Source: a virus
Lineage: Duplodnaviria > Caudoviricetes
Virus record (IMG/VR): IMGVR_UViG_3300033417_000005
Location: 8,617 to 72,616 of that record
Length of the DNA stretch: 64,000 bases
Direction: 5' to 3' (one strand)
Each line of letters begins with the position of its first letter. The stretch's first letter is position 1. Under the pieces are notes generated by a model. The model searched no databases. It was given only the letters and a program-made list of their open reading frames with translations, and was not told where the DNA came from. Of the stretch, positions 20,259-36,284 are shown in pieces. The translations under genes were made by a program, and so were the position numbers.

Positions 20259-20720
20259 ATGCCCATCATTCACTCAAAGAGATCTGTATACGCAGGGATA
20301 GACCCCGGTATGAGCGGTGGGCTCGTCTGTATCGGCCCTCAACTAATCGTTACCCCCATGCCTCCTACCGAAAGAGATATCTGGGATTGGTTCGAGGCTC
20401 TTCCGCCCGTACGTCTGGCCGTGATAGAAAAGGTGCATTCCATGCCCCGACAAGGAGTGGCGAGTACCTTCAAGTTCGGTTGCAGCTACGGAGGACTGCG
20501 CATGGCTCTGATTGCTTCTAAGATCCCATTTCAAGAAGTAACGCCCCAAACTTGGATCAAGGGACTCGGGATTCCCGGTAAGAAGAAAACTGAATCTGGG
20601 ACTCAGTGGAAAAATCGTCTCAAGGGCAAAGCGCAGCAATTCTTTCCGCAAGTAGGTGTGACGCTAAAAACGGCGGATGCACTTTTAATCGCCCGGTACT
20701 GCCAAAAAATCGGCAAGTAG
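20259..20720 (+). CDS. RuvC-like Holliday junction resolvase
   Basis: GIDPGMSGG, AVIEKVHSMP, FKFGCSYG, ADALLIA. Confidence 0.85.
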   Translation: MPIIHSKRSVYAGIDPGMSGGLVCIGPQLIVTPMPPTERDIWDWFEALPPVRLAVIEKVHSMPRQGVASTFKFGCSYGGLRMALIASKIPFQEVTPQTWIKGLGIPGKKKTESGTQWKNRLKGKAQQFFPQVGVTLKTADALLIARYCQKIGK

Positions 20721-20739
20721 CGCGGTAAAATGCGTTTAT

Positions 20740-20885
20740 GTTTTCCGCTTACGAAAAGGTGAGCGGCGGATTGAAACACGCTTATTTGCGGAAAGAATTG
20801 CTGCGCTTTGACCACACGGGGTCAATGGTTTGGATCGTGCGCCCTCTGCTTTGCCGTGCGATCTGATTTTGCGGCCCCGTGTGGT
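20740..20885 (+). CRISPR. Solitary CRISPR cassette 1: repeat (20740-20777), 36-nt spacer (20778-20813), long hairpin (20811-20885)
   Basis: Repeat GTTTTCCGCTTACGAAAAGGTGAGCGGCGGATTGAAAC with an 8-bp stem and ATTGAAAC end. Spacer matches the minus strand of 20624-20659 at 32/36. Confidence 0.8.
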
Positions 20886-20911
20886 TCTTACTAATCACCA
20901 GGAAAGTCGCG

Positions 20912-21019
20912 ATGAAACCTAGAATGATAATAGATGTGCTTTTGCTGCTGTTAACGTTTGTTTCTCTAGTGGGTATTAGTTTGTACAATGTCGTTAGGCT
21001 ATTGGAGAAATTTCGATGA
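20912..21019 (+). CDS. Small single-TM membrane protein (35 aa, not in the ORF track)
   Basis: MKPRMIIDVLLLLLTFVSLVGISLYNVVRLLEKFR. AGGA SD. ATGA overlap with the next gene. Confidence 0.55.
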   Translation: MKPRMIIDVLLLLLTFVSLVGISLYNVVRLLEKFR

Positions 21020-21237
21020 GCAATGAAAATCAAGTGACAGAGGACGAGTCGGACGAGAGTAGGTTTTTGAGAGGCTTTAGAAAGGCTTCCATCGCGGACT
21101 TGGAAAAAGTGGTCCGAAGGGCATTGGTGCTGGAGAAACATACGTACGCTGGGCGCGACACCGCAAGCTCTCTCTACCGTCTGCGGAAGAGTTTGGAGGG
21201 TATTTGGGGCCACGAGTTGCCAGAACTGAAGGAGTGA
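21016..21237 (+). CDS. Hypothetical protein
   Basis: Coupled to both neighbours in the operon. Confidence 0.55.
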   Translation: MSNENQVTEDESDESRFLRGFRKASIADLEKVVRRALVLEKHTYAGRDTASSLYRLRKSLEGIWGHELPELKE

Positions 21238-21240
21238 AAA

Positions 21241-21651
21241 ATGTGCCTGTCGGTAGCTGTTAATTATCCGGATTGTGTTTTGAGCAAGGGAGAGCACAAA
21301 GGATTTGAGTGGATGGTGGTACACAACGGCCACGGATACCGTTGCGGCTACGTGCGTCTCCCAGTCGGGCATCCGTGGCACGGTAAGTCTGATTGGGATC
21401 TCAACGCGAATGTTCATGGTGGATTGACGTTCTCCGAGCCGGATAAACCGTGTGATGGAGACCGACCGGACAATGCGTGGTGGATCGGGTTTGACTGCGC
21501 TCATGGGGGCGACGTACCTGACCCGTCCTTGCCGGGGTACACAGACCTCGGGCTTGGGCCAGAGTTTGGAATAGTCCGGACCACGGAGTACGTTGAGGAG
21601 CAATGTCGAGGCTTGTGCGATCAGGCAAAAGCGCGAGCTCGAAGAGGGTAA
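21241..21651 (+). CDS. Conserved phage hypothetical protein
   Basis: RCGYV...HPWHG...VHGGLTFS...WWIGFDCAH motif set. Confidence 0.7.
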   Translation: MCLSVAVNYPDCVLSKGEHKGFEWMVVHNGHGYRCGYVRLPVGHPWHGKSDWDLNANVHGGLTFSEPDKPCDGDRPDNAWWIGFDCAHGGDVPDPSLPGYTDLGLGPEFGIVRTTEYVEEQCRGLCDQAKARARRG

Positions 21652-21708
21652 CTAATCACCTACTTTAGCTACCACAACTTGCTTGTGTTCAGGGAGTCGG
21701 GCGGCGGT

Positions 21709-22251
21709 ATGTCTCAGTTTACGAAACATCTAGAACGGTGGGGAAACTGCGAGCAGTGTGAGCTTCACAAGGTTCGTACGAAGGTGGTGTTGTGGAGAGG
21801 ATCCAAGATTCCTTGCGACGTACTCTTTACAGGTGAAGCGCCCGGGCTGACTGAGGACATTGAAGGGCTGCCTTTCACGGGTCCAGCGGGGCGGCTGCTG
21901 GATCAGATTGTAGAGCGGTCGATACCCAATACCTTGTCGGTGGGATTTACAAATCTTATAGCCTGTATTCCGAGAGCCGTACCGGGTGGAAGCAAGGTGG
22001 GAGAACCTCCGCCTTGGGCTATTAAAGCGTGTGCTGATCGGCTGCGCGAGATTATTAAGATTGCGAATCCAGCACGGATTGTTACCGTGGGTACGCTGGC
22101 GAAGAAGTATTTGCCGAGCAGAAACCTGGAACTGCCCGCCATGGTATCGATTGTCCATCCCGCCGCGATTCTACGGAGCAATCCCGTACAAAAGGAAGCG
22201 GCGATAAGACAGTGTATCATTACTCTAACGGAAATGAGTGAAGATCTATGA
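21709..22251 (+). CDS. Uracil-DNA glycosylase, family 4 (Fe-S)
   Basis: CEQCEL, GEAPG, PFTGPAG, NLIACIP, HPAAILR. Confidence 0.9.
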   Translation: MSQFTKHLERWGNCEQCELHKVRTKVVLWRGSKIPCDVLFTGEAPGLTEDIEGLPFTGPAGRLLDQIVERSIPNTLSVGFTNLIACIPRAVPGGSKVGEPPPWAIKACADRLREIIKIANPARIVTVGTLAKKYLPSRNLELPAMVSIVHPAAILRSNPVQKEAAIRQCIITLTEMSEDL

Positions 22252-23288
22252 AAGAGAATCTGCAAACCGTATGGCGCGGTCCTCATGAAGACGGTATTAC
22301 TCAGTCCCTGCTCTCGCGGTTTCTTATGTGCCGTGAACGGTTTCGGGTATTGGTGATAGAGGGTCTGGCTCCTATGGAACAATTCAATCACCGCCTTGAG
22401 TATGGGAACTTTTGGCATATCTGTGAAGAGCATTCGTCAGGTGGAGGAAACTGGACCGCTCCTGTAACGGCTTATGCAAAACAGCTCGCCCTCAGGTTTC
22501 CCGAAAGCAGGGAACAGATTGAACATTGGTGGCGAGTTTGTCTGCGCCAGTTCGAGATCTATGAGGACCTAAAGGGACCTGTACGATGCAACAGCCTGAT
22601 GCAAGAGTTCGTGTTTTCGGTTCCCTATAAACTGCCTTCAGGTCGTACCGTGATTCTACGCGGGAAGTGGGACTCCGTGTTTGGAGAGGACGACGGTATC
22701 TGGCTGCTGGAACACAAAACCAAAGGGACCGTGGACGAGCAGACCATACGACGTCAGTTGACTTTTGATCTGCAAACCATGTTCTACGTCGTAGCCCTCA
22801 AAGAGCATATACGAACCAACACACGAAAGGAGATGAAAGGGAAGAAAGTAGCCGGGGTGCTCTACAACGTAGTGCGCAGGCCGCTAAGCGGGGGTAAAGG
22901 ATCTATCAGGCAACATAAAGCAACCAAGAACAAGCCGGGGGAGACGAAGGAACACTTCTACGATCGGGTGGCGAAGATCATTCAAGAAGACTCGGAGAAC
23001 TACTTTTTCCGGTGGAAAGTGGTGCTTACGAAGGGAGACGTGGCAGCTTTTAAAAGGAAGTTTTTGAGGCCGATCCTTGAGCAGTTGTGCGATTGGTGGC
23101 ATATTCAGGCAACGCTGACGCCTCCGCTTGCTTGGTATAATCGCAGTAATTACACGCACTGGCAAACTCCCTTTGAAGTGTGGAATGTTTTGGAGAAGGG
23201 AGGCACAACAGACTTGGATGCGTACCTTACCACGGGGAATCGTGCGGGACTTCACAAGGTGAAAACCTTGTTTGGGGAACTTGAGTAA
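22248..23288 (+). CDS. PD-(D/E)XK exonuclease (recombination)
   Basis: QSLLSRFLMCRERF, GKWD...LLEHKT, QTMFY. Confidence 0.8.
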   Translation: MKENLQTVWRGPHEDGITQSLLSRFLMCRERFRVLVIEGLAPMEQFNHRLEYGNFWHICEEHSSGGGNWTAPVTAYAKQLALRFPESREQIEHWWRVCLRQFEIYEDLKGPVRCNSLMQEFVFSVPYKLPSGRTVILRGKWDSVFGEDDGIWLLEHKTKGTVDEQTIRRQLTFDLQTMFYVVALKEHIRTNTRKEMKGKKVAGVLYNVVRRPLSGGKGSIRQHKATKNKPGETKEHFYDRVAKIIQEDSENYFFRWKVVLTKGDVAAFKRKFLRPILEQLCDWWHIQATLTPPLAWYNRSNYTHWQTPFEVWNVLEKGGTTDLDAYLTTGNRAGLHKVKTLFGELE

Positions 23289-23353
23289 CGCCACGCAGAT
23301 GGAGGAGCGTGGATAATCACCCATGGACGTTACCATTCTAAAAGGGGAAGGCT

Positions 23354-23947
23354 ATGATGGCAGTGAAGCAGCGTAAGAAGAAAGAGGGACCTTTGAGCAA
23401 GAGAGACCGGATAAGGGAGTATCTGCAAGGCTGTCCTGATCTGAGAAGTATCAACGCGAAGGAAATTGGGCGTATCTTCGGAGCGAATTCTTCCGAGATT
23501 TATAAGGTGCGGAGGGGGATCTATAAGTCTAGGGCGTTCGAGTACACCAATGCAGGTCGCGACGAGATGTTGAAAGAGACGCCCAAAGAGTTGTCTTGTC
23601 GCAAGGAGCCGACGGGTAAGAGAGGAAGAGTACTGGAATACTTGAGAAACCAGCCTGACCTGGCGAACATCAAAGCTAGGGAAATCGCGGTGAACTTCGG
23701 GGTGCATATTACGGAAGTGTATAGAGCAAGGAAGCTGCTTAGGGAGGAACCAGTCAAGCCACTTCTCCTGAGGTTGTCAGCGCAGGAACCTTCGGCAACA
23801 CTCGCGCAGCAATCTCCAGCTTTCAATGGAGCCGGTGACGACGGGGAACTGATTGGCGACCTGGTTGCACTTAACAAGATGGGTGTCGACAGAGTACGGA
23901 GGGCTGTTAAGATCCTGGACCGTTTGAGTATGGAGGATATTCAATGA
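23354..23947 (+). CDS. Protein with two tandem HTH-like repeats
   Basis: KRDRIREYL...NAKEIGRIFG...EIYKVRR and KRGRVLEYL...KAREIAVNFG...EVYRAR. Confidence 0.6.
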   Translation: MMAVKQRKKKEGPLSKRDRIREYLQGCPDLRSINAKEIGRIFGANSSEIYKVRRGIYKSRAFEYTNAGRDEMLKETPKELSCRKEPTGKRGRVLEYLRNQPDLANIKAREIAVNFGVHITEVYRARKLLREEPVKPLLLRLSAQEPSATLAQQSPAFNGAGDDGELIGDLVALNKMGVDRVRRAVKILDRLSMEDIQ

Positions 23948-24237
23948 AAAAATCCAGAAGAAGAACGGAACTGCCTAAGGACTACGAGCAGTATCTAATT
24001 CGGCTTACGGATGAGATCTTCGAACGGGCTTGCGACGAAATGAGCTGGACGTGGAACGAGCTGGCCGACCACGCCAACGTTAGCCGGAGTGCCGTAGCTC
24101 GGCTTGGCAACTACATTACTAAACTTCCTCGGCTTCAGACGTTCTACAAACTGGCAAGTGCGGTTGACATGGACTTGGAACTCGTAACCAAGCAAGTTGT
24201 TAAACTACGGACGGCGGGAAGTTTGAAAGTCGGCTAG
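23944..24237 (+). CDS. XRE/Cro-type HTH protein
   Basis: WTWNELADHANVSRSAVARLG...PRLQTFYKLA. Confidence 0.75.
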   Translation: MKKSRRRTELPKDYEQYLIRLTDEIFERACDEMSWTWNELADHANVSRSAVARLGNYITKLPRLQTFYKLASAVDMDLELVTKQVVKLRTAGSLKVG

Positions 24238-24368
24238 TTTCCGCTCGCCAATCAGCGGGCGGCGGATTGAAACAAACTACAGGCAGTGGGAAAGTTTGAA
24301 AGTCGGTTAAAACGATCCCAGCGCGGGTGGGGCGGCGTTTCCAAGCTCTCTCGCTCGCCCGTGCTGGG
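24237..24368 (+). CRISPR. Solitary CRISPR cassette 2: repeat (24237-24273), 36-nt spacer (24274-24309), hairpin (24317-24368)
   Basis: Repeat GTTTCCGCTCGCCAATCAGCGGGCGGCGGATTGAAAC (37 nt) shares its last 15 nt and its stem with repeat 1. Spacer is about 29/36 identical to 24202-24236. Confidence 0.78.
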
Positions 24369-24452
24369 TTTCACCGGGAGGGACTCGGTTTCCGTACTCT
24401 GCCGAGTTCCTCCTTTATTGACGCGAAGACTGAGAAAAGGAAAATAGGCAGA

Positions 24453-25358
24453 ATGGTGAAGATAACCAAGGACGTGACAATGGACGTTACAAGCAAGCAG
24501 CTTCGCAAAGGGTCCGTGAGCGGAAGGAAAAGGAAGTTACAAAGCTCCACGAAATCACAAAGCGTGATAGACCGTATTGCTCCGATCAACTTTGGTGAAA
24601 ACGATGGAATCAAGCTCAACCTCTATGGACGGAGCGGCACCGGGAAGACCACATTGTGGGCCACCTTTCCTAAACCGATACTGGCGGTGCTGGCTTCCGA
24701 ATCTAAGACGTCGGGGGAACTTCGGAGCATCAATACTTCCGAGTACCGTAAGACGATCAAGCAAGTGGTGCTGGAAGACTGTGACGAAATCGAGGAAATC
24801 TGCGCCCACGTGAAAGAAGCAAACTATGCTACTTTGGTATTGGACCACGCCACCGGATTGCAGCACAAGGTTTTGGCTGAAGTTCTAGGAATTGATAAAG
24901 TGCCGGAACAGCTTACTTGGGGGCTCGCCACTCAGTCGCAATACGGTCAGGTGGGGGTACGCATGAAGACTTATTTGCGCGCTCTGCTAGACGTAGAAAT
25001 CAACGTGGTGATCGTGGCACAGCAAAGAGAATTTCTTACGGAAGGGGATGAGGGGGCAAGTGAGATTTTAGCTCCGTACGTAGCGAGCGCCTTGAGCCCG
25101 AGCACGTGCGCATGGCTCAACTCCTCGTGCGACTACATTGCACAGACCTACATTAGGGAAGAAACGCTGGAAAAGAAGATCAAGATGGGAAAGAAGACAC
25201 GTATTCGCAAGGTGCGCACGGGCAGCGTACAATTCTGTTTACGGGCTGCACCTCACGCCGTGTATACCACCAAATTTCGCAGACCGAAAGGAGGAACGTA
25301 TCCGGATGTTATTGTAGACCCTGATTATGACAAGATCATGCAAGTCGTGAAAGGATAA
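24453..25358 (+). CDS. AAA_24/Sak4-like ATPase (recombination)
   Basis: LYGRSGTGKTT, TLVLDHATG, DYIAQT. Near the exonuclease and SSB-like genes. Confidence 0.8.
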   Translation: MVKITKDVTMDVTSKQLRKGSVSGRKRKLQSSTKSQSVIDRIAPINFGENDGIKLNLYGRSGTGKTTLWATFPKPILAVLASESKTSGELRSINTSEYRKTIKQVVLEDCDEIEEICAHVKEANYATLVLDHATGLQHKVLAEVLGIDKVPEQLTWGLATQSQYGQVGVRMKTYLRALLDVEINVVIVAQQREFLTEGDEGASEILAPYVASALSPSTCAWLNSSCDYIAQTYIREETLEKKIKMGKKTRIRKVRTGSVQFCLRAAPHAVYTTKFRRPKGGTYPDVIVDPDYDKIMQVVKG

Positions 25359-27354: not shown

Positions 27355-29348
27355 TGCGGTCGCTAGACACCGAGACTACGGGCGTAGACCTGTGGCATGG
27401 GGCCAAGCCGTTCTTCGTGACCTTTTGTGATGAGAAGGATCACATTACGTATTTTGAGTGGGAAGTTGATCCACATACCCGAGAGCCGCGGGTGAAGCGT
27501 AAGGACTTGACGGCAATCCAAGAGCTGATCGACGACTCGGAAACGCTCGTACTCCAAAACCCCAAGTTCGACTATCAGGCTCTGCAAACGGTGTTTGAAG
27601 GTCGGCTGCGATGGGAATGGAGCAAAGTACGCGATACGCTGCTGGCCGGTCATCTTATCAACAGTCTGGAACCCCACAACCTGACCGACATGGTTTCCAA
27701 ATACCTGGGCCTAGATATTCAACCCTACGAAAAGGATCTCCAAGCTGCTTCTGAAGAAGCGAGAAGATATGCACGCAGTCATTACCCCGAATGGAGAATC
27801 GCGAAAGCTGGCCTCGCCGAAATGCCAAGCGCCGGAGGCAAGGTGTGGAAGTTCGACACCTGGCTGCCTAAGACGCTGGCGAAATCTGAGGGGATGCTTA
27901 CAACCCATCCATATCACACGGCGCTCCGAAAATACGGAAATATCGACAGCACCTGCACTCTAGCCTTGTATAAAAGACAGCGCGCATTGTTACGAGAGAA
28001 AGGACTTTGGAAAATCTACAAGCATAGACTCAAGGTGCTTCCTATCGTAGTTCACATGGAACAGTGCGGAGTGCATCTGAGCAAGCATAGACTGCAAAAG
28101 CTGTACGAGGAATATACGCGGGAAAGTGAGAGAGCCGGAAAAACGTGCGTACGGATTGCTAAGAAGTATGGAGCTGATCTGACATTGCCTAAGAGCGGGG
28201 TGAACAACAGCCTGCGAGCCACAATCTTTGATCACCTGAAACTGAGCCCCCTGAATCTTAGCAGACGTACGGGGGAGCCGAGCCTGAACCAAACGGTGCT
28301 GGAAGAATATGGGGAACTCCTAAAGGAGGACGATCCTCGGCTAAAGTTCATCCAAGCTCTTCAAGCCAAACGCAAGCGCGATACGGCGATGGTGTATATG
28401 GAGGCTTATAAGCGATTTTGGCTTAAGGAAAGTGGAAGTTACCTACTGCATCCTAGTCTGAACCCCACGGGTACTCACACGTTGCGGTGGTCGAGCAGCC
28501 GGCCGAACGAACAGAACATCAGCAAAAAGGAGGGCTTCAACCTCCGCTATTGCTTCGGTCCCGCCCAAGGAAGAGAGTGGTGGTCCCTCGATGCGCAGAA
28601 CATAGAGCTCAGGATTCCCGCGTACGAAGCAAATGAAACCGATCTGGTATACGTATTCGATCATCCGGAGGAGGCTCCTTACTTTGGCAGCTATCATCTG
28701 GTCGTGGCTGATCTGCTGCATCCAAAACTGTTCAAAGAGTACGGCGCAGCGTTCAAAAAGAAGTTCTCCAGTACGTGGTATCAATGGCTGAAAAATGGAA
28801 ACTTTGCGGTTATCTACGGGTGTCAGCAACGGAAGGCGGATATCACGTACCACGTAGTTGGAGCGTACGAAAAGATTCGGAGAAGGTTTCCAAAGATCGC
28901 CGCGCTGGCCGACTATCAAATTCGTTATGCAAGAGAGCGCGGCTACGTGGAAACCATTCCTGACCGAAGTTTAGGGCAGCAACGGGGCTACCCGTTATAC
29001 TGCGTTCGGGGTGGTCGCACGGGGTATACGAACGATGTAAGCCCTACGTTGCCGCTTAATTACCACGTCCAAGGAACGGCCATGCAATGGATGCAGAATG
29101 GTATGATCCGATGCTACGACATCCTAAACAGGTGGAACCGTGAAGATTCAGCGGTGCAATACTTCATGATAATGCAAGTGCATGACGAGCTTGTATTCGA
29201 CTTTCCGAAAAGCACCATGGCCGAAAGCCTGAAAAGAATACAACGGATCAAGAGAGCGATGGAAAAGGGAGGAGAGGACATTGGTGTGCCCACGACGGTG
29301 GGAGTGGAATATCATCCCCATAACTGGAGTGAAGGTGAAACATGCTAG
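27351..29348 (+). CDS. polA: Family A DNA polymerase with 3'-5' exonuclease domain
   Basis: LDTETTG (ExoI), DAQNIELR (motif A), KNGNFAVIYG (motif B), QVHDELVF (motif C). Confidence 0.93.
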   Translation: MMRSLDTETTGVDLWHGAKPFFVTFCDEKDHITYFEWEVDPHTREPRVKRKDLTAIQELIDDSETLVLQNPKFDYQALQTVFEGRLRWEWSKVRDTLLAGHLINSLEPHNLTDMVSKYLGLDIQPYEKDLQAASEEARRYARSHYPEWRIAKAGLAEMPSAGGKVWKFDTWLPKTLAKSEGMLTTHPYHTALRKYGNIDSTCTLALYKRQRALLREKGLWKIYKHRLKVLPIVVHMEQCGVHLSKHRLQKLYEEYTRESERAGKTCVRIAKKYGADLTLPKSGVNNSLRATIFDHLKLSPLNLSRRTGEPSLNQTVLEEYGELLKEDDPRLKFIQALQAKRKRDTAMVYMEAYKRFWLKESGSYLLHPSLNPTGTHTLRWSSSRPNEQNISKKEGFNLRYCFGPAQGREWWSLDAQNIELRIPAYEANETDLVYVFDHPEEAPYFGSYHLVVADLLHPKLFKEYGAAFKKKFSSTWYQWLKNGNFAVIYGCQQRKADITYHVVGAYEKIRRRFPKIAALADYQIRYARERGYVETIPDRSLGQQRGYPLYCVRGGRTGYTNDVSPTLPLNYHVQGTAMQWMQNGMIRCYDILNRWNREDSAVQYFMIMQVHDELVFDFPKSTMAESLKRIQRIKRAMEKGGEDIGVPTTVGVEYHPHNWSEGETC

Positions 29349-30226
29349 CGAAGCGCTGTAACGTCCAGGATCTAAAAAGTATGTACGGGCTGAAGAATTT
29401 GGATGTCTTCTTCTATTGGATTGGTGAAAGAGAAAAGATACGCCGGGCCAAGGAAGCGGGAGAGCCTAAGCCTTGGACCGAGGATCCGATACTGCAAAAG
29501 TACAGATTCTGCAACGTCCGGAGAATGGACGACCGAGTAAGCAGGTGGCTCTTCGACCGCTGGTACGAGCCGGAATTTGATTGCTCGAATATGCTTACGG
29601 CGTGTACGATCGCTCGGCTGCTCAATCTGCCGGAGTCGTTGGAGGCTATTGGTTTTCCAAGACAGTGGAAACCGCACCGAGTAGAAAAGATACTGGAAGA
29701 GAGGAAAAAGCAGGGCTGCAAAACCTTCAACTCCGCCTACATAATCACCGGCTGCTTCGGGGGAAGTAAGATCCATCAAGTAGTCTGGTGGATTACGCAG
29801 CCTATTCACAAAGATCGCCACAAAATTGTGGATCGTACGAGCATGCGAGCTACTTGGCAAAATCTGCTGGCGTACCCCGGCATCAAGTCATTTCTAGCCG
29901 GGCAGATTGTGGCTGACCTGAGATGGGCGATCAACCACGAGTGGAAGGACCAATACACGTGGGCTCCTCTAGGACCGGGAAGCCGTAGAGGAATGAACAG
30001 GCTGCTCGAAAGACCGAAAAGTCGGGGGATGGGACAAGAAGAGTTTGATGGATACTTTGGGTCGCTGATCGAGGAAGGAAAAGACAGGGACGGGTGGGTG
30101 CTGGCTGAAACTATGGAACGGATGGAGGCGATCGACTGGCAAAACTGCTTGTGCGAATTCGACAAGTATATGAGAGCCCTGACGGGACAAGGCAAGCCGA
30201 AACAGAAATATGCGGGGGTAGAATGA
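29342..30226 (+). CDS. aGPT-Pplase clade 1-like amino acid:DNA transferase (thymidine hypermodification)
   Basis: FYWIGERE...PWTEDPILQKYRFCNVRRMDDRVS and QNCLCEFDKY. Confidence 0.85.
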   Translation: MLAKRCNVQDLKSMYGLKNLDVFFYWIGEREKIRRAKEAGEPKPWTEDPILQKYRFCNVRRMDDRVSRWLFDRWYEPEFDCSNMLTACTIARLLNLPESLEAIGFPRQWKPHRVEKILEERKKQGCKTFNSAYIITGCFGGSKIHQVVWWITQPIHKDRHKIVDRTSMRATWQNLLAYPGIKSFLAGQIVADLRWAINHEWKDQYTWAPLGPGSRRGMNRLLERPKSRGMGQEEFDGYFGSLIEEGKDRDGWVLAETMERMEAIDWQNCLCEFDKYMRALTGQGKPKQKYAGVE

Positions 30227-31224
30227 ATATCAACCTGTTCTATTTAAGCGACGCACGCTACGGGGGTCACGTCACCTTTACCGTGCATCTAATGCTCGGA
30301 CTGCGGGCTGTCGGTGCCTCGGCGTCGCTCTACAAGGTAGGTAAGAACACGGAAGACAAATGGCGTGACTTCGGTTACGGTAGATTGTATCAAAACATTT
30401 CGCTAGTGGATGCTTGCAGGCTGTGCAAAAGCAAGCGCAGCGTCACTTTGGTTGTGGCAACCAACAAGCCGTGCGCGCAGGCGATCAACGCCATGATAGA
30501 TGCGGGGGCTAGAGCGGTGATCCATGATCCTGGTGAGTTTAAGCGAGGATGGAATTGGCAGAAGGTGCAGCGGCCTATTGTAATCCGTGAGAGTATGCTC
30601 TCCTGGTTTGAGGACGCCGTGTTCCTGCTCCACCCTTACGATCCGTTGTTCGGTAAGATATTCGTAGCTCCAACGGAGGAATGGGCGGCGGTAAGCACGA
30701 GTAGAATAGATTTTGACAAGCACACGGAAATCTTGCTTGACGCGAATAGACTGCTTGATAAGAAAGACAGGATACAAATTTATGGGTTTGAAAATAGAAT
30801 CTATACACGGTTTAACGTCGTACCTAAGTACCCGGAATGGCGGCAGTCCGTATGCAAGTATCCGAGAAAACTGCGTTACGCCGTGAGGCAGCTCTGTCAC
30901 AAGGCTGCGTTCAGTTGCGACATGTCCATTATCAAAGGCGACGGTGGAGGCACGCAATATACGTTTTTGGAGGCGATAGACGCCGGGTGCGCCCTCGTTC
31001 TGAATCGCGGGTGGATTATCGACAATCACGTAATGAACCCCGACAGCAACTGTTTTGCGGTGTCCGATGGGGAACAGCTTGCCGGGCTCATCAAAGAGTA
31101 CACACGAGGCTCGAAGATAATGCGCCGTAGGGTTGAAAGAAGAAGGATCAAGGCCCGCCGATTGCTGGACAAGCACCTTGCCCGGAAAGTAGCCGTTTCT
31201 TGGAAGGAGGAGTTACATGACTGA
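30223..31224 (+). CDS. GT-B-fold glycosyltransferase-like protein of DNA-modification loci
   Basis: YGGHVTF at the N-terminus; DMSIIKGDGGGTQYTFLEAIDAG. Confidence 0.65.
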   Translation: MNINLFYLSDARYGGHVTFTVHLMLGLRAVGASASLYKVGKNTEDKWRDFGYGRLYQNISLVDACRLCKSKRSVTLVVATNKPCAQAINAMIDAGARAVIHDPGEFKRGWNWQKVQRPIVIRESMLSWFEDAVFLLHPYDPLFGKIFVAPTEEWAAVSTSRIDFDKHTEILLDANRLLDKKDRIQIYGFENRIYTRFNVVPKYPEWRQSVCKYPRKLRYAVRQLCHKAAFSCDMSIIKGDGGGTQYTFLEAIDAGCALVLNRGWIIDNHVMNPDSNCFAVSDGEQLAGLIKEYTRGSKIMRRRVERRRIKARRLLDKHLARKVAVSWKEELHD

Positions 31225-32008
31225 CGTCTACATCGCCCCGTTTTTTCGTAGATCGGGTGGACACGCCGTGCTTCATTGGCTCGGGGCGGGCTACAGCAAC
31301 TACACGCTGGTAAGCGAGATTCCAGTAACTTATCGTCCATTGAAGAGATTCAGCAATGTAGAATGGAATGTCGACGCAGTGTTCTTTGCCGTGGAGGATA
31401 AGTTTATCGCTCCTAGAAGCAAGGAGTTGACTAGTCTTTTGGACACTTACCCGATAAAGAACCCAACAAGAGTGTTTCACGTGTCCATCGTTCGGGATGC
31501 GTACAACGCCTGCGCAAGCAGAATGCGCATTAGCGACAATTGGCTATGGCGGAGAAGAAGCCGGGGGTTGCCCGACGCTCCCGACAGCTACTATCCCGTC
31601 CATGGCTACAACTCGCGGCTTCCCGCTCTGTGGCGGTCTATAGTGGAGCAGAGCATGGAGGAACTGTCTAGTCATGCCTTGATGGTAAACTTCAACAAAT
31701 GGGCTAGAAGCGACGAGTATCGTTACAATTTATGCAAATGCTTTGGGCTGAAACATCTAAAATGTGAGAAAGGAAAGGAGCGGGTTACGAGGGAAGGAGG
31801 AGGAAGCAGCTTTACGGGTACGACTAAAATGCCCGAGCATTGGGAGCTCAAAAATAGATGGCTGGGATACGCCAAGGACCCGAGGCTTTTAGAGGTCGTG
31901 CTGAATAAAGAAATCAGAGAGATAAATAAGCAAGTTTTCGGCTGGTCCCTTCGACGAAACCGCGATGGAGACATTGAGAGTGAGGAGTGGCCCTGGGCAG
32001 CCTCTTAG
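31217..32008 (+). CDS. Sulfotransferase/P-loop kinase-like protein
   Basis: RRSGGHAVLHW (PSB-like loop) and IVRDAYNACAS (R-x7-S). Confidence 0.55.
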   Translation: MTDVYIAPFFRRSGGHAVLHWLGAGYSNYTLVSEIPVTYRPLKRFSNVEWNVDAVFFAVEDKFIAPRSKELTSLLDTYPIKNPTRVFHVSIVRDAYNACASRMRISDNWLWRRRSRGLPDAPDSYYPVHGYNSRLPALWRSIVEQSMEELSSHALMVNFNKWARSDEYRYNLCKCFGLKHLKCEKGKERVTREGGGSSFTGTTKMPEHWELKNRWLGYAKDPRLLEVVLNKEIREINKQVFGWSLRRNRDGDIESEEWPWAAS

Positions 32009-32032
32009 GACACAAATGAAAGGGTCTAAAAG

Positions 32033-32236
32033 ATGATTCCAAGCCTTGATGAATTGATATTACGCCTACGCCGGGACGTGCCGCACCGGGACTCTATGTA
32101 TGAACTTGCCCGACAAGTAGCGGGCTGTGAAAGGGGAACGGATGGGCTGCCCGTAAACACCGTGCGCTTTGCGTTCCAGTGTTTGGTTGTGCTGCTTAAA
32201 CACGTTGAAAACGACCCTAAGAATCCGGAAAACTGA
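32033..32236 (+). CDS. Hypothetical protein
   Basis: In operon, 67 aa. Confidence 0.45.
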   Translation: MIPSLDELILRLRRDVPHRDSMYELARQVAGCERGTDGLPVNTVRFAFQCLVVLLKHVENDPKNPEN

Positions 32237-32237
32237 C

Positions 32238-32996
32238 ATGAAATCTAAGATTCTAATCGTGACCCGAGGCAGGCCGTGGCATAAGCAATCTACAGCTCAG
32301 GCGCTCATGGAGGCTGACATCCCTTTCACCTTTATCCGCACTTTGGGAGACGAAGTATCCTTGTTCTGCGCAAGGCGTAAGACGTCCGCCATCTGGGTCG
32401 ACGCTTCGAACATCGCGGTGAAACGACAGAAGGTGCTGCAACTCTACAAACGGTTCATCATGCTCGACGACGACCTGTCGTTCCAAAGGGTAGTTGAAGG
32501 CAAGGCGGTAAAGGCGGCCCCCGATGAGCTGGAGGCTTTATTCGCTCTCATGGATCAGTGCTTAAATACTCATGCTCTAGTCGGCCTGGAAAACCGTTTC
32601 ATGATCCAGAACAAGGAGCAGCCGTTCAACAGCAAGTGGGGGAAGATGATCCACGCAGTAGGCGTAAATAAGAAGTTCTTAAAAGGCAACGAGCGGTACA
32701 GCCGCGTACCCGGCCATGAAGACATTGACTTCTTTTTGCAAGTGGCGATGAATAAGTGCCCCGTGATCATGATCTCCAAATATACCCATAGCGACGCCGG
32801 GAACTTTTATCGGCCGGGAGGATGCAGTACGTGGAGAAACAAAGAGAATGACCACGAGCAAGCCCGCAAGCTCCAATCTCTGTGGCCGAGTATTATTACT
32901 CTCTATCCGGGAAAAGACGGAATTACTAGAGTCAAAGGAAACTGGAAAAAGGTGAGGGAACATAATGCCTCCGCTGCACAAAAAACCAAAATCTGA
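32238..32996 (+). CDS. TET/JBP-associated-type (GREB1/JGT-like) GT-A DNA glycosyltransferase
   Basis: IVTRGR, MLDDDL, EDIDFFLQ, GGCSTWR...LQSLWP. Confidence 0.75.
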   Translation: MKSKILIVTRGRPWHKQSTAQALMEADIPFTFIRTLGDEVSLFCARRKTSAIWVDASNIAVKRQKVLQLYKRFIMLDDDLSFQRVVEGKAVKAAPDELEALFALMDQCLNTHALVGLENRFMIQNKEQPFNSKWGKMIHAVGVNKKFLKGNERYSRVPGHEDIDFFLQVAMNKCPVIMISKYTHSDAGNFYRPGGCSTWRNKENDHEQARKLQSLWPSIITLYPGKDGITRVKGNWKKVREHNASAAQKTKI

Positions 32997-33942
32997 CTAC
33001 GTTCAGCATCCTCCGTTTTGTATTCAAATTGAGCTGACTGAAGGATGCAATTTACGGTGTACTTTCTGCGGCCTCAACGGAATCCGTGGCAAGGAAAACA
33101 ACTTCAAGTTCCTTTCGGTCAGTCTGGCTTCAAGAATTGCCAAGCTGATCCGTAAAGATCGGTGGACCTCCCGGATCGAGTTTGCCATGCACGGAGAGCC
33201 AAGTGTAAATCCAGACTTGGTGGAGATTCTTAGGGTCTTTCGCCGTAGACTTCCCAACCATCATCTGATGATGACCAGCAACGGGGCGGGGTTTCTAAGA
33301 GAGACCACGAAGACGGTCGATGAATGCCTACGCTATTTGAACGTGCTTGCCTTGGACGATTACGAGGGAGTGAGTATTGTGACCAAGGTGATGCGCAGCT
33401 ACAACGGCAAGCATAAGCCAGTGTACTATCCTTCCAGCAAGCATGGCAACCCGCATCGTAGGAGGAAACTGAGCGAGCATGACCTCGTGGTAGTGCAAGA
33501 CATAGAACAGGCTACGCAAGGCACTCATAGCAGCTTGAACAATCATTGTGGCTGTGGCTCACCGAAGAACGACAGTGCCATGGGCAAGCGGTGCGCTAAA
33601 CCGTTCCGGGAGATGTCGATACGGTGGGACGGCTTCGTGGCTCTGTGCTGCAACGACTGGAGGGGGTACTACAAGTGCGGTCACGTAGAAGACAAGACCT
33701 TGGAACAGATATGGCAAAGCGCGGAGTTCATGGCCGCCCGGAGAAGACTGATACTTGGGAAGAGGGACTTCGGGCCTTGCGAAGGCTGCGACGCCCTGAG
33801 CTACCGACCGGGGCTGCTGCCGGATCAGAGGGGAAAGGTGCATCTGCCTGAGCCTAGCAGGGCCGACGAAGAGACCATTGCCAAGGCGCTGTTTGGAGCT
33901 TCCTACACGCTGCCCGTACTACGAGAGTGGGAGAGCGCATAA
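32965..33942 (+). CDS. Radical SAM/SPASM protein
   Basis: CNLRCTFC; CAKPF...IRWDG...LCCNDW...IWQS...CEGC. Confidence 0.88.
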   Translation: MPPLHKKPKSDYVQHPPFCIQIELTEGCNLRCTFCGLNGIRGKENNFKFLSVSLASRIAKLIRKDRWTSRIEFAMHGEPSVNPDLVEILRVFRRRLPNHHLMMTSNGAGFLRETTKTVDECLRYLNVLALDDYEGVSIVTKVMRSYNGKHKPVYYPSSKHGNPHRRRKLSEHDLVVVQDIEQATQGTHSSLNNHCGCGSPKNDSAMGKRCAKPFREMSIRWDGFVALCCNDWRGYYKCGHVEDKTLEQIWQSAEFMAARRRLILGKRDFGPCEGCDALSYRPGLLPDQRGKVHLPEPSRADEETIAKALFGASYTLPVLREWESA

Positions 33943-33968
33943 AAATAGCCCGGCAACTCCACCGGGCT
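33942..33968 (-). terminator. Intrinsic terminator between convergent genes
   Basis: AGCCCGG-N8-CCGGGCT, followed by a T-run on the minus strand. Confidence 0.7.
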
Positions 33969-33991
33969 GTAAAACCTTGTGACGTTCCTTA

Positions 33992-34402
33992 CTACTTGGT
34001 CTTAACGCTCCTTCCTTCCTTAGTCAGAAACAACACCATGCCTCCCTCTTCCATGCTTTCCCGAGCTATCAAGCCTCGGGCTCGTAGGGAAAGACAGGGT
34101 GCTTTTGAGGCGTTGGCCCATACGTCCTCACGGGGGACGCCTCGCGCCGCGCTGAAGGCTTTCTGTTCCTTGAGGTAGGCGAGCACTTCCAGCTCACCAC
34201 TTGTCAGCTCAGCATCTTCGAGCTCGTCGGCTAAAGCGGCCACCCGATCTACACGGGGGAGAGGCTCTTTCACCGGCTGGGGCTTCTTCTTCTTTCCCTT
34301 TTTCTCCGGTACACTTTCACTTACGGGGGCGTTACTGCTCGAAGACTCGCGCTTTCTCCGTACGCGCTTTTTGTCCGTACCTGTTTCAGATCCAGTCGCC
34401 AT
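33992..34402 (-). CDS. Basic winged-helix-like DNA-binding protein, paralog of 48190-48636
   Basis: GAGGAG SD. EVLAYLKEQKAFSAARGVPREDVW...CLSLRARGL. Confidence 0.65.
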   Translation of the reverse strand: MATGSETGTDKKRVRRKRESSSSNAPVSESVPEKKGKKKKPQPVKEPLPRVDRVAALADELEDAELTSGELEVLAYLKEQKAFSAARGVPREDVWANASKAPCLSLRARGLIARESMEEGGMVLFLTKEGRSVKTK

Positions 34403-34464
34403 GATGTGGCTCCTCAAAAAAGAATAGTGGGGTGTTTAGGCTTTAGCAAGCCTTACTAATGGCC

Positions 34465-34493
34465 AGCCTACCAAGGAAGTTGTCACTTTGCAA
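34465..34493 (-). promoter_or_regulatory. Sigma70-type early promoter
   Basis: TTGCAA-N17-TAGGCT, same family as 43116 and 45005. Confidence 0.65.
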
Positions 34494-34541
34494 GGGGTAA
34501 AATGCCAAAAAAGAAAAACTTTTTAGCGAAGGAGATTTCCC

Positions 34542-35090
34542 GTGATTTCAAGGATCTTTGTGGACCTGGACGACGTACTGGTGGACTTTCGGGGAGGCGC
34601 AATTCGGCTGCATGGGTGGGATCCGGCGGATTGCCGACCCGAAATGTGGGATATGTGTGAGTCGAGAGGAGTAACACAAGAAGATTTTTGGAAACCTATT
34701 GATGAAGCCGGAGAAGACTTTTGGTACTTGCTGCAACCCCATCCTTGGATACACGAAGTCATAGAACTGGTGGAAAGGCACGTGGGTGAGGAGTGGTACA
34801 TAGTCACCTCGCCGAGCAGGCACGTTAGCTCTTACGTTGGCAAGCTAAAATGGGTCAAGGCGTGGTTTGGCGCACAGTTTGACAGGATGATTCCAATGAC
34901 GCATAAACACCTGCTGGCGGATTATGACAGAGTGCTAATCGACGACAGCCCGGATAACATTCTGGAATTTAATAATGCCGGAGGAATTGGAATTTTGTTT
35001 CCAAACGTCGGCAACAGTCTGCATGAACAGGCGCACAGTCCGATGGACCACGTTGAGGAAATCTTAACGCGGATAATGCAACAGGAGTAA
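34542..35090 (+). CDS. HAD-family 5'(3')-deoxyribonucleotidase (NT5C-like)
   Basis: FVDLDDVLVDF, IVTSP, VLIDDSPDN. Confidence 0.85.
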   Translation: MISRIFVDLDDVLVDFRGGAIRLHGWDPADCRPEMWDMCESRGVTQEDFWKPIDEAGEDFWYLLQPHPWIHEVIELVERHVGEEWYIVTSPSRHVSSYVGKLKWVKAWFGAQFDRMIPMTHKHLLADYDRVLIDDSPDNILEFNNAGGIGILFPNVGNSLHEQAHSPMDHVEEILTRIMQQE

Positions 35091-35096
35091 ATTAAA

Positions 35097-36284
35097 ATGG
35101 AACTCGTTTTTAAAGACGTAAACGATGCGTTTGCCGTGCTGGTTGAAATGGTGTTGAAAAACCAGATAGGAACCACGAAAACCACGAGCCGAGCGGGCGA
35201 CGTTATTGCCATCAACGAGCCGATGCTGATCACGTATGAAAATCCTTGCCATCGGGTGCTGTTCAACCCCTTGCGCGACTGTAACTGTTTCTTCCAGTTG
35301 TACGAAGCCCTTTGGATGCTGGCCGGTCGTAACGACGTATCACCTCTGGCGTACTACAACCGGAGAATGACTGAGTTTAGTGACGACGGCAAAACCCTCA
35401 ACGGTGCGTATGGATATCGATGGAGAACTAAGCCGAGAATGCCTTGGACCGACCTGTACGGTGCTAGTCCTGCAAAATTCGCGGAAGTTCATTGCGGTCC
35501 GGTTCGGCGAGTTGACCAGCTAGATATCTTAGTCGACCACCTGAAGAAAACTCCCAACAGCCGACGTGCGGTTCTCCAAATGTGGGACGTGGAGGACGAC
35601 CTTTTGAAAATAGATGAATCGAAGGACGTGAGTTGTAATCTCTCAGTCATGTTCAGCCTGAGGCAAGGAAGGTGTGAAGTCTGTGACGATTACCGAGGCC
35701 CGGATCAGGACTGTCCCGCATGCAACAGCGAGTCCCCCACGTTCTTGGACATGACGGTTACGAACCGCAGCAACGACATGATTTGGGGAATGCTAGGTGC
35801 TAACGTGGTACACTTTAGTTTCCTTCTTGAATACATAGCGGCGCGGCTGGGGGCGAGCGTTGGCCGGTATCACCAGTTCACCAACAACCTTCACGTCTAT
35901 ACGAGTAACTGGCTGCCTCGTAAGTGGCTGAGCGTGTACGGTCAGTATCGCACGATGTACAGTCCGCCCAATACGCGGTACGAAGACCTTGCTTCGCTCG
36001 TGCCCCTCGTTGTAGACCCGGAACGGTTTGATCGTGAACTGCCTGAGTTTGTGGAAAGGCATAGTAAGGACGCGACCGGTGTTGCTTACAAACTCAACAG
36101 TGAACCGTTCTTGCAAAACGTGGCACAGCCTCTGTGTACCGCGTTCCATTACCACAAGCGTCGTCAGTATGCGGATGCCATGAGTGTAGTTCAGGAAATC
36201 CTAGCGGACGATTGGCGGATCGTTGCTACGGATTGGATCCGGAAACGGCGCTCGAAGTATGAGAGCAAAGGTAATAATGCCTAG
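35097..36284 (+). CDS. Thymidylate synthase homolog, probable dUMP hydroxymethylase
   Basis: SRRAVLQMW, catalytic SCN, RSNDMIWG...N (Asn implies dUMP specificity), NNLHVY. Context of aGPT-Pplase and GT genes. Confidence 0.8.
   Translation: MELVFKDVNDAFAVLVEMVLKNQIGTTKTTSRAGDVIAINEPMLITYENPCHRVLFNPLRDCNCFFQLYEALWMLAGRNDVSPLAYYNRRMTEFSDDGKTLNGAYGYRWRTKPRMPWTDLYGASPAKFAEVHCGPVRRVDQLDILVDHLKKTPNSRRAVLQMWDVEDDLLKIDESKDVSCNLSVMFSLRQGRCEVCDDYRGPDQDCPACNSESPTFLDMTVTNRSNDMIWGMLGANVVHFSFLLEYIAARLGASVGRYHQFTNNLHVYTSNWLPRKWLSVYGQYRTMYSPPNTRYEDLASLVPLVVDPERFDRELPEFVERHSKDATGVAYKLNSEPFLQNVAQPLCTAFHYHKRRQYADAMSVVQEILADDWRIVATDWIRKRRSKYESKGNNA

Follow-up and report, generated by a model that had tools for sequence, protein, structure and literature searches.

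Two dispersed units of one layout in a phage genome (R1-S1 and R2-S2; each a repeat, a 36-nt segment and a hairpin) are best explained, with a confidence that we set no higher than even, as virus-borne mini-CRISPRs without cas genes. Each retains a single repeat and a single spacer, closed by a hairpin, and would borrow the Cas proteins of the host against related phages. The source record is a complete virus genome of 72.6 kb, and the window is the 64,000-nt stretch of it that was analysed. The sequence-only reading had proposed two intergenic units sharing one architecture, and all of their elements were located as it described them:

20259-20720, plus strand: RuvC-like Holliday junction resolvase gene, 153 aa (phrog_1770 Holliday junction resolvase, 2.8e-19), which holds T1
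20624-20659, minus strand: T1, the phage's own mismatched copy of S1 (32/36 identity; minus-strand 5' flank GTC)
20740-20777, plus strand: R1, solitary CRISPR repeat of 38 nt (8-bp stem, 6-nt loop, 11-nt tail CGGATTGAAAC; covariance model 50.9 bits)
20778-20813, plus strand: S1, 36-nt spacer that matches T1 in inverted orientation (32 of 36 against the reverse complement of 20624-20659)
20810-20886, plus strand: long G+C-rich hairpin, then TTCTT (-41.7 kcal/mol, z -5.15), overlapping the last 4 nt of S1
23354-23947, plus strand: gene for a 197-aa protein with weak HTH matches (PF13518, E 0.0032, below cut-off), the first gene of the insertion bearing unit 2
23944-24237, plus strand: XRE-type HTH gene, 97 aa (PF01381, 23.1 bits)
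24202-24236, plus strand: T2, the phage's own mismatched copy of S2 (30/36; 5' flank GTT)
24237-24273, plus strand: R2, solitary CRISPR repeat of 37 nt (8-bp stem, 11-nt tail CGGATTGAAAC; covariance model 56.7 bits)
24274-24309, plus strand: S2, 36-nt spacer that matches T2 in direct orientation, adjacent to and downstream of R2
24317-24368, plus strand: G+C-rich hairpin, then TTTCACC (-36.1 kcal/mol, z -1.7, unexceptional for its G+C content)

Cas7, Cas5d and Cas3 had no match anywhere in the whole 72.6-kb genome, in agreement with the earlier statement that cas genes are absent. The final 15 nt are common to R1 and R2 (GCGGCGGATTGAAAC), with no further exact copies in the window or the whole genome, and the family covariance model picks out R1 and R2 only in the phage. 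The stem arms are CCGCTTAC/GTGAGCGG in R1 and CCGCTCGC/GCGGGCGG in R2. Comparison of the two stems revealed one full compensatory change from A-U to G-C, together with two one-sided changes in which pairing is kept by a G-U wobble; the shared 3' end and the compensated 8-bp stem noticed earlier were both seen again. Across seven family sequences, 100% of the 56 stem cells are paired, with compensatory changes in five of the eight pairs, compared with 41-75% of cells paired in slid controls. The family stem ends 11 nt before the 3' end of the repeat, as in type I-C repeats. The geometry likewise matches that of type I-C, a stem-loop and then an 11-nt single-stranded 3' tail ending ATTGAAAC; this is the Cas5d cleavage geometry, and cleavage is predicted. 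Type I-C repeats are usually about 32 nt long, a length from which the 37-38 nt of R1 and R2 depart.

Similarity search and the covariance model detected no significant second repeat or repeat fragment 3' of S1 or S2. A hairpin stands in place of the second intact repeat, as had been claimed. Unit 1 probably ends, or is terminated, at the hairpin of 20810-20886, which shows no likeness to the repeat, and unit 2 probably ends at that of 24317-24368, whose likeness to the repeat is not significant. No promoter came to light immediately 5' of R1; a promoter-like site is present at 23330-23358, by the start of the 23354-23947 gene.

The repeats had been expected to lead to bacterial arrays, which held for the repeat family and failed for an identical repeat. 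The nearest bacterial array belongs to a Pirellulaceae genome; its 37-nt repeat occurs 38 times, and its spacers measure 33-39 nt. Its repeat is identical to R2 at 30 of 37 positions and has in common with it the GTTTCC start, the stem position and the 15-nt 3' end. The identity of R1 and R2 to the closest host repeat known is 76-81%, and no bacterial array with a repeat identical to either was found. The neighbours of the Pirellulaceae array are Cas2, Cas1c (TIGR03640, 483 bits; cut-off 385), Cas4 and a Cas7/Csd2 fragment, and a second Pirellulaceae genome with the same repeat family encodes Cas7, Cas3, Cas4 and Cas1c (501 bits; cut-off 385). The Pirellulaceae Cas7 and Cas3 do not reach the cut-off scores of the subtype, and no large subunit was recognised, indicating a divergent type I-C variant. 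The linkage to Cas1c, Cas4 and Csd2-type Cas7, and a stem that ends 11 nt short of the 3' end, speak for type I-C rather than I-D, and R1 and R2 look type I-C-like and not I-D. The flanks GTC and GTT, which had been taken to fit either an I-D or a mutated I-C PAM, are present. The system is a type I-C-like variant, probably from Planctomycetota. The spacers of seven retrieved host-type array loci showed no match to the phage.

Further viral contigs also carry solitary repeats of the R1/R2 family. In one, about 27 nt separate the repeat from a perfect terminator hairpin; another, in viral contig L021, is identical to R2 at 32 of 37 nt. The family also includes, in L016 and L030, a unit that is clearly spacer-less and decoy-like, with a reiterated handle. 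The latter favours an alternative that we consider unlikely, namely that the phage units are Racr decoys, in which transcribed solitary repeats would sequester host Cas5d and Cas7 and blunt immunity, the 36-nt segments being relics of old mini-arrays. As in Racr (Camara-Wilpert et al. 2023, PMC10651486), a phage without cas genes carries a lone repeat that imitates the hairpin of the host repeat, and one of the units follows immediately on a protein gene of its operon. Solitary repeats with intact hairpin and handle, lacking a second repeat and cas genes, are by definition solitary repeat units. R2 begins at the HTH stop codon in a two-HTH operon, which resembles an acr-racr bicistron (RacrIC1 is located 11 nt after acrIC5; PMC10651486), and the 1-nt indel in S2 would also suit a decoy. 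However, Racr is defined by the repeat alone, whereas here a spacer-sized homologue of a phage gene follows, which a decoy does not need, and the exact spacer-size homology of both segments to the adjacent gene is left unexplained. Racr units often adjoin acr genes; no known Acr family was found among the neighbouring ORFs, which are HTH proteins and small ORFs without family match. The decoy and guide roles are not mutually exclusive.

Each spacer matches the gene upstream of it, in opposite orientations as previously stated, S1 being inverted at 32/36 and S2 direct at 30/36 with a gap. We judge, in line with the earlier reading, that this arrangement fits targeting at the DNA level and not at the RNA level. 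The local alignment score of the spacer against its own target is 28 for S1 and 22 for S2, compared with a maximum of 15 over 2000 shuffled spacers. In both units the similarity begins at the first base past the repeat and ends after 36 nt.

The RuvC-like protein has 514 homologues, the best 69% identical and several named RuvC by JGI, and T1 codes for a conserved K-A-Q-Q-F-F-P block. The R1-S1 unit lies 80 nt from T1. The mismatches between S1 and T1 fall at spacer positions 3, 5, 8 and 34; all four are on family-variable residues, the conserved 25-nt core is identical, and translation of S1 in the frame of ruvC runs open and yields a peptide typical of the family. Three of the four mismatches lie within positions 1-8, as CRISPR escape would lead one to expect, and S1 has just 2 contiguous PAM-proximal matches to T1. 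Sequestration of Cas proteins by the repeats would not explain why the S1 differences lie on variable codons and in the seed. For unit 1 only, an RNA-level element was also considered, in which co-transcribed S1 and T1 would form a duplex of about 34 bp as an RNase III site or stabiliser, or in which S1, if transcribed alone, would be antisense to the ruvC mRNA. In a 301-nt fold (-141 kcal/mol, z -10.9) 20627-20660 is paired to 20777-20810, and three of the four mismatches turn into G-U wobbles in RNA, although three such outcomes from three transitions are a 1 in 8 chance. The duplex arm begins exactly at the repeat boundary and has exactly spacer length, and the explanation is inapplicable to unit 2, a direct copy that nevertheless has the same design of repeat, 36-nt segment and hairpin. 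We regard it as extremely improbable.

In unit 2, T2 forms the last 11 codons of the HTH gene at 23944-24237, whose stop codon extends over the first base of R2, and T2 abuts R2 with zero gap. The sole homologue found for this gene, P0122 on a 589-nt contig, is 80% identical and has the same K-V-G ending. Relatives lack the 23354-23947 gene between their exonuclease and Sak4 genes. S2 and T2 agree at 30 positions and differ by five substitutions, all of them transitions, and by a 1-nt gap inside a run of A, and S2 has 7 contiguous PAM-proximal matches to T2. In the 3' part of S2, the single in-spacer difference is synonymous (GGC to GGT), and S2 with the next base changes TAG to TAA and retains the stop, which points to an origin of S2 in a functional allele. 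S2 carries one nucleotide more than any in-frame allele modelled, and may thus be a decaying relic.

The numbers of PAM-proximal matches bear on whether the units encode regulatory guide-like RNAs in the style of CreA, CreR or Cracr, by which a non-cleaving Cascade would repress ruvC and the HTH genes of the phage itself, or else host cas or toxin promoters. These RNAs (bioRxiv 10.1101/2023.03.03.530964, 10.1101/2024.10.29.618823) resemble the phage units in their compact repeat and pseudo-spacer and are sometimes phage-encoded. Partial complementarity to a nearby gene is their hallmark, and viral examples, including I-C ones, have been reported (bioRxiv 10.1101/2024.10.29.618823). However, the viral Cracr screen demanded at least 9 matched PAM-proximal pairs (bioRxiv 10.1101/2024.10.29.618823), and S1 and S2, with 2 and 7 contiguous matches, fall short of this number. 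The matching part is PAM-distal in both units and lies in phage structural genes, the reverse of the regulatory pattern of PAM-proximal complementarity to cas or toxin promoters. No seed match of S1 or S2 was found in other arrays or in the cas loci of two Pirellulaceae genomes, which are only stand-ins for the true host. We regard a regulatory role as very improbable.

Units 1 and 2 each sit in hypervariable insertion slots of a conserved module, and the phage has its own recombination genes (exonuclease, Sak4-like annealing protein and RuvC). Both features suit the idea that the units are non-functional scars, neutral leftovers of recombination or adaptation, with the phage later escaping by mutation. 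Recombination of a protospacer with the host spacer that matches it could have captured a piece of a host array, or host Cas1-Cas2 could have inserted a spacer of phage DNA beside a phage-borne repeat. Recombination between phages and arrays is documented (Varble et al. 2019, as cited in PMC7099407), the gapless T2-R2 junction is expected from a crossover inside a spacer-protospacer pair, and the seed-biased mismatches fit escape from a host spacer equally well. We still hold this origin to be decidedly unlikely. A crossover cannot yield the inverted unit 1, 80 nt from its target, and the T2 end (K-V-G, stop) is native, since P0122 ends alike. Moreover, two independent units have one architecture and are both closed by strong hairpins. 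The stems have diverged by compensatory and wobble changes, yet the hairpin and handle are perfect in both repeats, which argues for selection on the RNA.

Ordinary local duplication in relatives without the repeat, named beforehand as the opposing case, was not seen. None of 74 such related phages has a local duplicate of the target, so local duplication is not a family habit. The predictions that related phages would hold perfect protospacers and would carry the cassette beside its target were not borne out: no spacer-perfect protospacer for S1 or S2 was found in IMG/VR or JGI metagenome contigs, and no relatives bearing the R1/R2 cassettes were found.

The designation of the units as a candidate new system is not supported, because cas-less mini-arrays with a mutated carrier copy were already described in 2019 (PMC6858448). 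In the portogloboviruses SPV1 and SPV2, the spacers of such virus-borne mini-arrays match nearby genes of relatives (Medvedeva et al. 2019, PMC6858448). For phages that show this pattern these authors refer to Faure et al. 2019 (PMC6858448), whose phage and prophage mini-arrays we compare here as summarised in PMC8616872, PMC7099407 and PMC11656645. The mini-arrays likewise lie on a virus genome without cas genes and have host-family repeats and a single spacer with homology to a viral gene close by; in them, point mutations set the carrier's own locus apart and prevent self-targeting, and the proposed role is to exclude close relatives through host Cas proteins. They differ in having two repeats, or one complete and one truncated, whereas here one repeat is closed by an unrelated hairpin, and in forming one array instead of two dispersed units with diverged stems. 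[quoted passage not shown] We see about an equal chance for and against the units being a stripped-down, one-repeat form of this known strategy.

As one-repeat mini-CRISPRs, each unit would be transcribed at the 3' end of its own operon (ruvC; the two HTH genes), and a host Cas5d-type nuclease would cut at the base of the repeat stem to yield an 11-nt 5' handle and the spacer. The closing hairpin would define or protect the 3' end of the guide, which would enter host Cascade and aim Cas3 at co-infecting related phages with the spacer-matching allele. The carrier allele would be spared at T1 by three mismatches in the PAM-proximal seed, and at T2 by four mismatches within positions 8-14 together with a bulge of 1 nt. 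Several points count against this scheme. The nearest ruvC relative is only 69% identical, which weighs together with the lack of a spacer-perfect protospacer in the searches above. If the PAM is the canonical I-C TTC, conserved Val-Thr codons beside T1 force GTN in relatives also, so that these would escape cutting. In canonical I-C guide maturation the 3' end is set using the next repeat, and this route is missing without a second repeat. The phage encodes a thymidine hypermodification cluster, and such modification could make this phage lineage poor Cascade substrates. The extra nucleotide of S2, the negative outcome for a promoter directly before R1, and the lack of a match among the bacterial arrays, both of a repeat identical to R1 or R2 and of spacers from the seven retrieved loci to the phage, weigh the same way.

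The putative guide and its immune allele would lie within 160 bp of each other in each unit. In recombining phages, a guide parted from the immune allele would be self-destructive, and tight linkage would therefore be favoured, as in a poison-antidote pair. Homing endonuclease genes and poison-antidote cassettes similarly encode the cutter of a sensitive allele beside the resistant version, and with the agent placed beside the resistant allele, repair from the carrier would copy both. Here the nuclease would be host Cascade-Cas3 programmed by phage RNA, and neither a sensitive allele nor a conversion event was seen; the likeness is an analogy only, and homing or gene conversion by the cassettes is no more than an inference.

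The two units have the architecture described in the sequence-only reading: at R1 and at R2, a target is followed by a solitary repeat, a 36-nt spacer and a hairpin, without cas genes. Unit 1 lies at a ruvC-like gene and unit 2 at a gene for a helix-turn-helix (HTH) protein. T1 and T2 are the phage's own mismatched copies of the spacers S1 and S2.

20740-20777: R1, solitary CRISPR repeat of unit 1
20778-20813: S1, reverse complement of 20624-20659 (T1, within the upstream gene), identity 32/36
24237-24273: R2, solitary CRISPR repeat of unit 2
24274-24309: S2, direct copy of 24202-24236 (T2, the last codons of the upstream gene)

R1 and R2 have in common a GTTTCC 5' start and their last 15 nt (GCGGCGGATTGAAAC), a 15-mer with no other exact copy in the genome. 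Both repeats form an 8-bp stem that ends 11 nt before the 3' end of the repeat. A covariance model of the repeat family recovered R1 and R2 from the phage genome and nothing further, and Rfam at gathering thresholds gave no match across the whole window. S2 and T2 share 30 identities and differ by five transitions and one extra A inside an A run. The local alignment scores are 28 for S1 and 22 for S2, against a maximum of 15 among 2000 shuffles. In both units the similarity starts at the first base past the repeat and ends after 36 nt; the nearest bacterial array has spacers of 33-39 nt, a range that includes this length. No significant match to a second repeat or repeat fragment was found downstream of S1 or S2, and a degenerate second repeat 3' of the spacers was rejected because the similarity was not significant. 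Both units close with a long, G+C-rich hairpin, of -41.7 kcal/mol (z -5.15) in unit 1 and -36.1 kcal/mol in unit 2, the latter unexceptional for its composition.

Bacterial arrays were sought with the 15-mer in one genome per prokaryotic species, requiring two copies at array spacing, and were recovered in four MAGs. The closest array, in a Pirellulaceae MAG, contains 38 copies of GTTTCCGCTTGCTCACGAGCAAGCGGCGGATTGAAAC and 37 spacers. The expectation that the repeats would occur in bacterial arrays thus held for the family, the closest member being only 30/37 identical to R2 (29/38 to R1). The array adjoins genes for Cas2, Cas1c, Cas4 and a 96-aa Cas7/Csd2 fragment (L004/L097, contig 67, 193900-200800). 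The Cas7 piece is C-terminal and is followed by unrelated membrane genes (DUF2254 and MscS), so this MAG seems to have lost its effector module while retaining the array and intact Cas2, Cas1c and Cas4. Among 201 Pirellulaceae genomes sampled, one further genome had arrays of the family with about 20 spacers, together with Cas7 (PF05107, 184 bits), Cas3, Cas4 and Cas1c (501 bits). The host context of both the repeat family and the phage is probably Planctomycetota.

The stem was examined in an alignment of R1, R2, three bacterial repeats and two viral solitary repeats. All 56 cells of the 8-bp stem are paired, with both-sided changes in five of the eight pairs, whereas slid-control stems pair in only 41-75% of cells. 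The stem is followed by an 11-nt tail, CGGATTGAAAC, a geometry that matches Cas5d-processed type I-C repeats (Nam 2012 and Garside 2012, as cited in PMC10651486). R1 and R2 are true CRISPR repeats and belong to a type I-C-like family, whose 37-nt length and weak Cas7/Cas3 subtype scores mark it as a divergent variant. Type I-D, which the sequence-only reading had kept beside I-C, is disfavoured: Cas1c next to the 38-repeat array scores 483 bits (I-C cut-off 385) and only 285 bits with the I-D model, below its cut-off, and the stem lies 11 nt from the repeat end, not 8. What remains of the I-D argument is that the flanks GTC and GTT both fit GTH.

The gene upstream of R1 encodes a RuvC-like Holliday junction resolvase (phrog_1770) that has 514 homologues, the best of them 69% identical, and T1 codes for K-A-Q-Q-(L/F)-F-P, the most conserved block of the RuvC family. 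S1 and T1 share an identical 25-nt core, synonymous sites included, and all four differences hit flanking residues that vary among RuvC homologues. Read in the ruvC frame, S1 is open and gives a peptide typical of the family. Three of the four differences occupy spacer positions 3, 5 and 8, within the type I seed, and the remaining one position 34; for at least three of four mismatches in the first 8 of 36 positions, the calculated probability under uniform placement is about 0.04. The 5' flank of T1 is GTC. Because conserved Val-Thr codons fix GT beside T1, relatives would also have GTN there and not the canonical I-C TTC. R1 is preceded by a small hairpin after the ruvC stop codon, and a promoter search for R1 gave no convincing candidate. 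If T1 and S1 lie on one transcript, an RNA duplex between them is predicted: folding of positions 20600-20900 gave 34 bp around the repeat (-141 kcal/mol, z -10.9), with three of the four DNA mismatches turned into G-U pairs. Such a duplex cannot account for unit 2.

In unit 2, the upstream gene encodes a 97-aa XRE-type HTH protein with one known homologue (80% identity). Both proteins end in K-V-G, which identifies the T2 coding sequence as native. S2 differs from T2 by five substitutions, every one a transition, and four of these fall at positions 8-14. At its 3' end, S2 still encodes S-L-K-V-G, with GGC changed to GGT within the spacer, and S2 plus the next base changes the stop codon from TAG to TAA. 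The sequence of S2 points to its derivation from a functional allele. The extra A puts S2 out of register with every in-frame allele modelled. The 5' flank of T2 is GTT. R2 begins at the HTH stop codon and would therefore be co-transcribed with the HTH gene.

We read R1 and R2 and their spacers, with doubt and confidence about evenly matched, as a pair of minimal virus-borne mini-CRISPR units that guide a host type I-C-like Cascade against related phages. The guides of the units would be fed to the host complex, each consisting of the 11-nt handle CGGAUUGAAAC and the spacer, with its 3' end at or inside the hairpin, and the adjacent carrier alleles T1 and T2 would be immune through their mismatches. 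This reading draws support from the exact spacer geometry, from a hairpin and handle that are conserved, from an origin of both spacers that is compatible with coding and from the seed-biased differences; it is weakened by the lack of a sampled target, of a PAM from array spacers and of a second repeat, and by the indel in S2. Guide-like RNAs could instead regulate the phage's own genes or host cas genes. Viral RNAs of this kind repress host cas or toxin promoters via PAM-proximal matches, and the screen of the study concerned required at least nine matched pairs (bioRxiv 10.1101/2024.10.29.618823). Here, the complementarity is PAM-distal and stand-in cas loci contain no seed match, and we regard regulation as very unlikely.

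Targets and further carriers were sought in viral and metagenomic collections. No perfect protospacer was found in IMG/VR, where the 19-nt core of S1 had one chance match only, in a lysozyme-like gene, and an exact-word scan with the core shared by S2 and T2 had none. JGI metagenome contigs matched neither the 25-nt S1/T1 core nor the 3' half of R2. As to whether relatives carry the cassette next to the target, 83 related viral loci that have a ruvC homologue all lacked the repeat. By these searches, neither the phage that would be attacked nor a second carrier has been sampled. From the bacterial side, 152 spacers of seven host-type array loci compared with the phage genome, and 146 array spacers compared with the viral loci, gave nothing above chance and hence no PAM for the repeat family. 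A self-array search of the Pirellulaceae genome found no self-target. Against the cultured-phage collection, the Pirellulaceae array had only chance 32-nt matches in mycobacteriophages and the phage cassette region had no match. The units might also be a neutral scar of recombination or adaptation, which we consider rather improbable. A local duplicate of the ruvC block occurred in none of 74 testable related loci, so that the ordinary local duplication named as a refuting case in the sequence-only reading was not seen; an apparent duplicate in one locus, L139, was produced by faulty assembly around an N.

Solitary repeats of the R1/R2 family also occur on about ten other viral contigs, including the following.

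L189 820-855 and 3332-3440; L223 1579-1614 and 4091-4126; L228 3785-3820 and 6297-6332: paired solitary repeats
L016 1231-1308; L030 4184-4263: decoy-like repeat, handle GGCGGATTGAAAC twice, then TGAAAC, no spacer
L021 503-556 (IMGVR_UViG_3300036768_000632): solitary repeat, last 23 nt common with R2

None of the segments downstream of these roughly ten repeats matches nearby DNA in the stretches compared. Adjacency to a self-copy is thus not general in the repeat family, and among the phages examined it is particular to this one. The design of one repeat plus hairpin does recur in other viral contigs. In the phage group of L189, L223 and L228, the two repeats are exactly 2512 nt apart; one lies just 5' of a terS-like ORF, and about 27 nt separate the other from a perfect terminator hairpin downstream. 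L223 differs from the group in the downstream segment at the terminator-hairpin site, which suggests spacer turnover there. The L021 repeat has a perfectly paired version of the R2 stem. Its metagenome is also that of another phage with a ruvC homologue (L081). Solitary repeats are known as RNA anti-CRISPRs, one of them of type I-C and transcribed with a neighbouring acr gene (PMC10651486), and the repeat of L016 and L030 looks like a pure decoy. A decoy role for the solitary repeats R1 and R2 is unlikely, though with the neutral scar it is one of the two main rivals of the guide reading, and it could coexist with guiding.

The window covers positions 8617-72616 of a single IMG/VR virus record of 72,616 bp, with 52% G+C and a CheckV completeness of 100% for the record. 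The first 100 nt reappear about 273 nt from the opposite end, and the genome, labelled linear in IMG/VR, may have a terminal repeat of roughly 273 nt. Cas7, Cas5d and Cas3 were not found in it. Three further regions of the window are relevant here.

20721-21678 and 23289-24455: hypervariable slots with the cassettes
29342-37035: thymidine hypermodification cluster

The cluster encodes a 5-hmdU DNA kinase (PF18723, 151 bits), a TAGT-like glycosyltransferase, a radical SAM/SPASM enzyme, an NT5C nucleotidase, a thymidylate synthase homologue and an HNH endonuclease. No tyrosine integrase was found in the phage genome and no tRNA genes within the window; given also the family A DNA polymerase and the hypermodification genes, this appears to be a lytic phage whose DNA is modified. 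The modification could affect Cascade binding to the phage or its relatives.

Both units lie within a conserved recombination module encoding RuvC, a UDG-like protein, a PD-(D/E)XK exonuclease and a Sak4-like annealing protein, and each forms the 3' end of a gene string. Syntenic relatives (ruvC 56-61% identical) have the same module backbone, with unrelated small ORFs or nothing at the two cassette sites. The linkage of guide and allele and the flanking recombination genes make it attractive to view each unit as a selfish pair of guide and immune allele, an RNA-programmed homing element, an idea that is speculative and rather unlikely. In a co-infecting relative, the phage guide would direct host Cascade-Cas3 to destroy the sensitive allele; the break would be repaired from the carrier by the phage exonuclease, Sak4-like protein and RuvC, whose genes flank the cassettes, and the repair would copy the resistant allele together with the neighbouring cassette. 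CAST-like guided insertion was rejected, as transposase genes are absent and the geometry of target and cassette is unequal (80 nt on the PAM side in unit 1, 0 nt on the PAM-distal side in unit 2).

The sequence-only reading had proposed a candidate new system. Cas-less mini-arrays have already been described in archaeal viruses, where the spacers match close relatives, and where point mutations or deletions at the orthologous loci of the carrier keep it from targeting itself (Medvedeva et al. 2019, PMC6858448). According to the same paper's account of Faure et al. 2019, phage mini-arrays target adjacent genes of close relatives and not of the carrier. The present units are therefore not a new system but a variant form of virus-borne mini-arrays. 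Known mini-arrays enclose their single spacer either by two repeats or by a complete and a truncated one (PMC8616872, PMC11656645), whereas each unit here has a single repeat and a closing hairpin, and the two units are dispersed, each beside its own immune allele.

Why the spacers of virus mini-arrays so often aim at genes beside the array, and by what route a unit on a phage matures in the absence of a full array, are open questions in the field, and the two independent and very clear examples in this genome bear on both. They add to the known range of mini-arrays a divergent and poorly studied I-C-like repeat family and an apparently lytic phage with hypermodified DNA. Should they prove to be no more than decoys or relics, they are an ordinary addition to the known list. 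A reconstituted type I-C system would allow a concrete test of the idea that guide and immune allele are linked, and homing, if true, would explain why viral mini-array spacers lie so near their targets.
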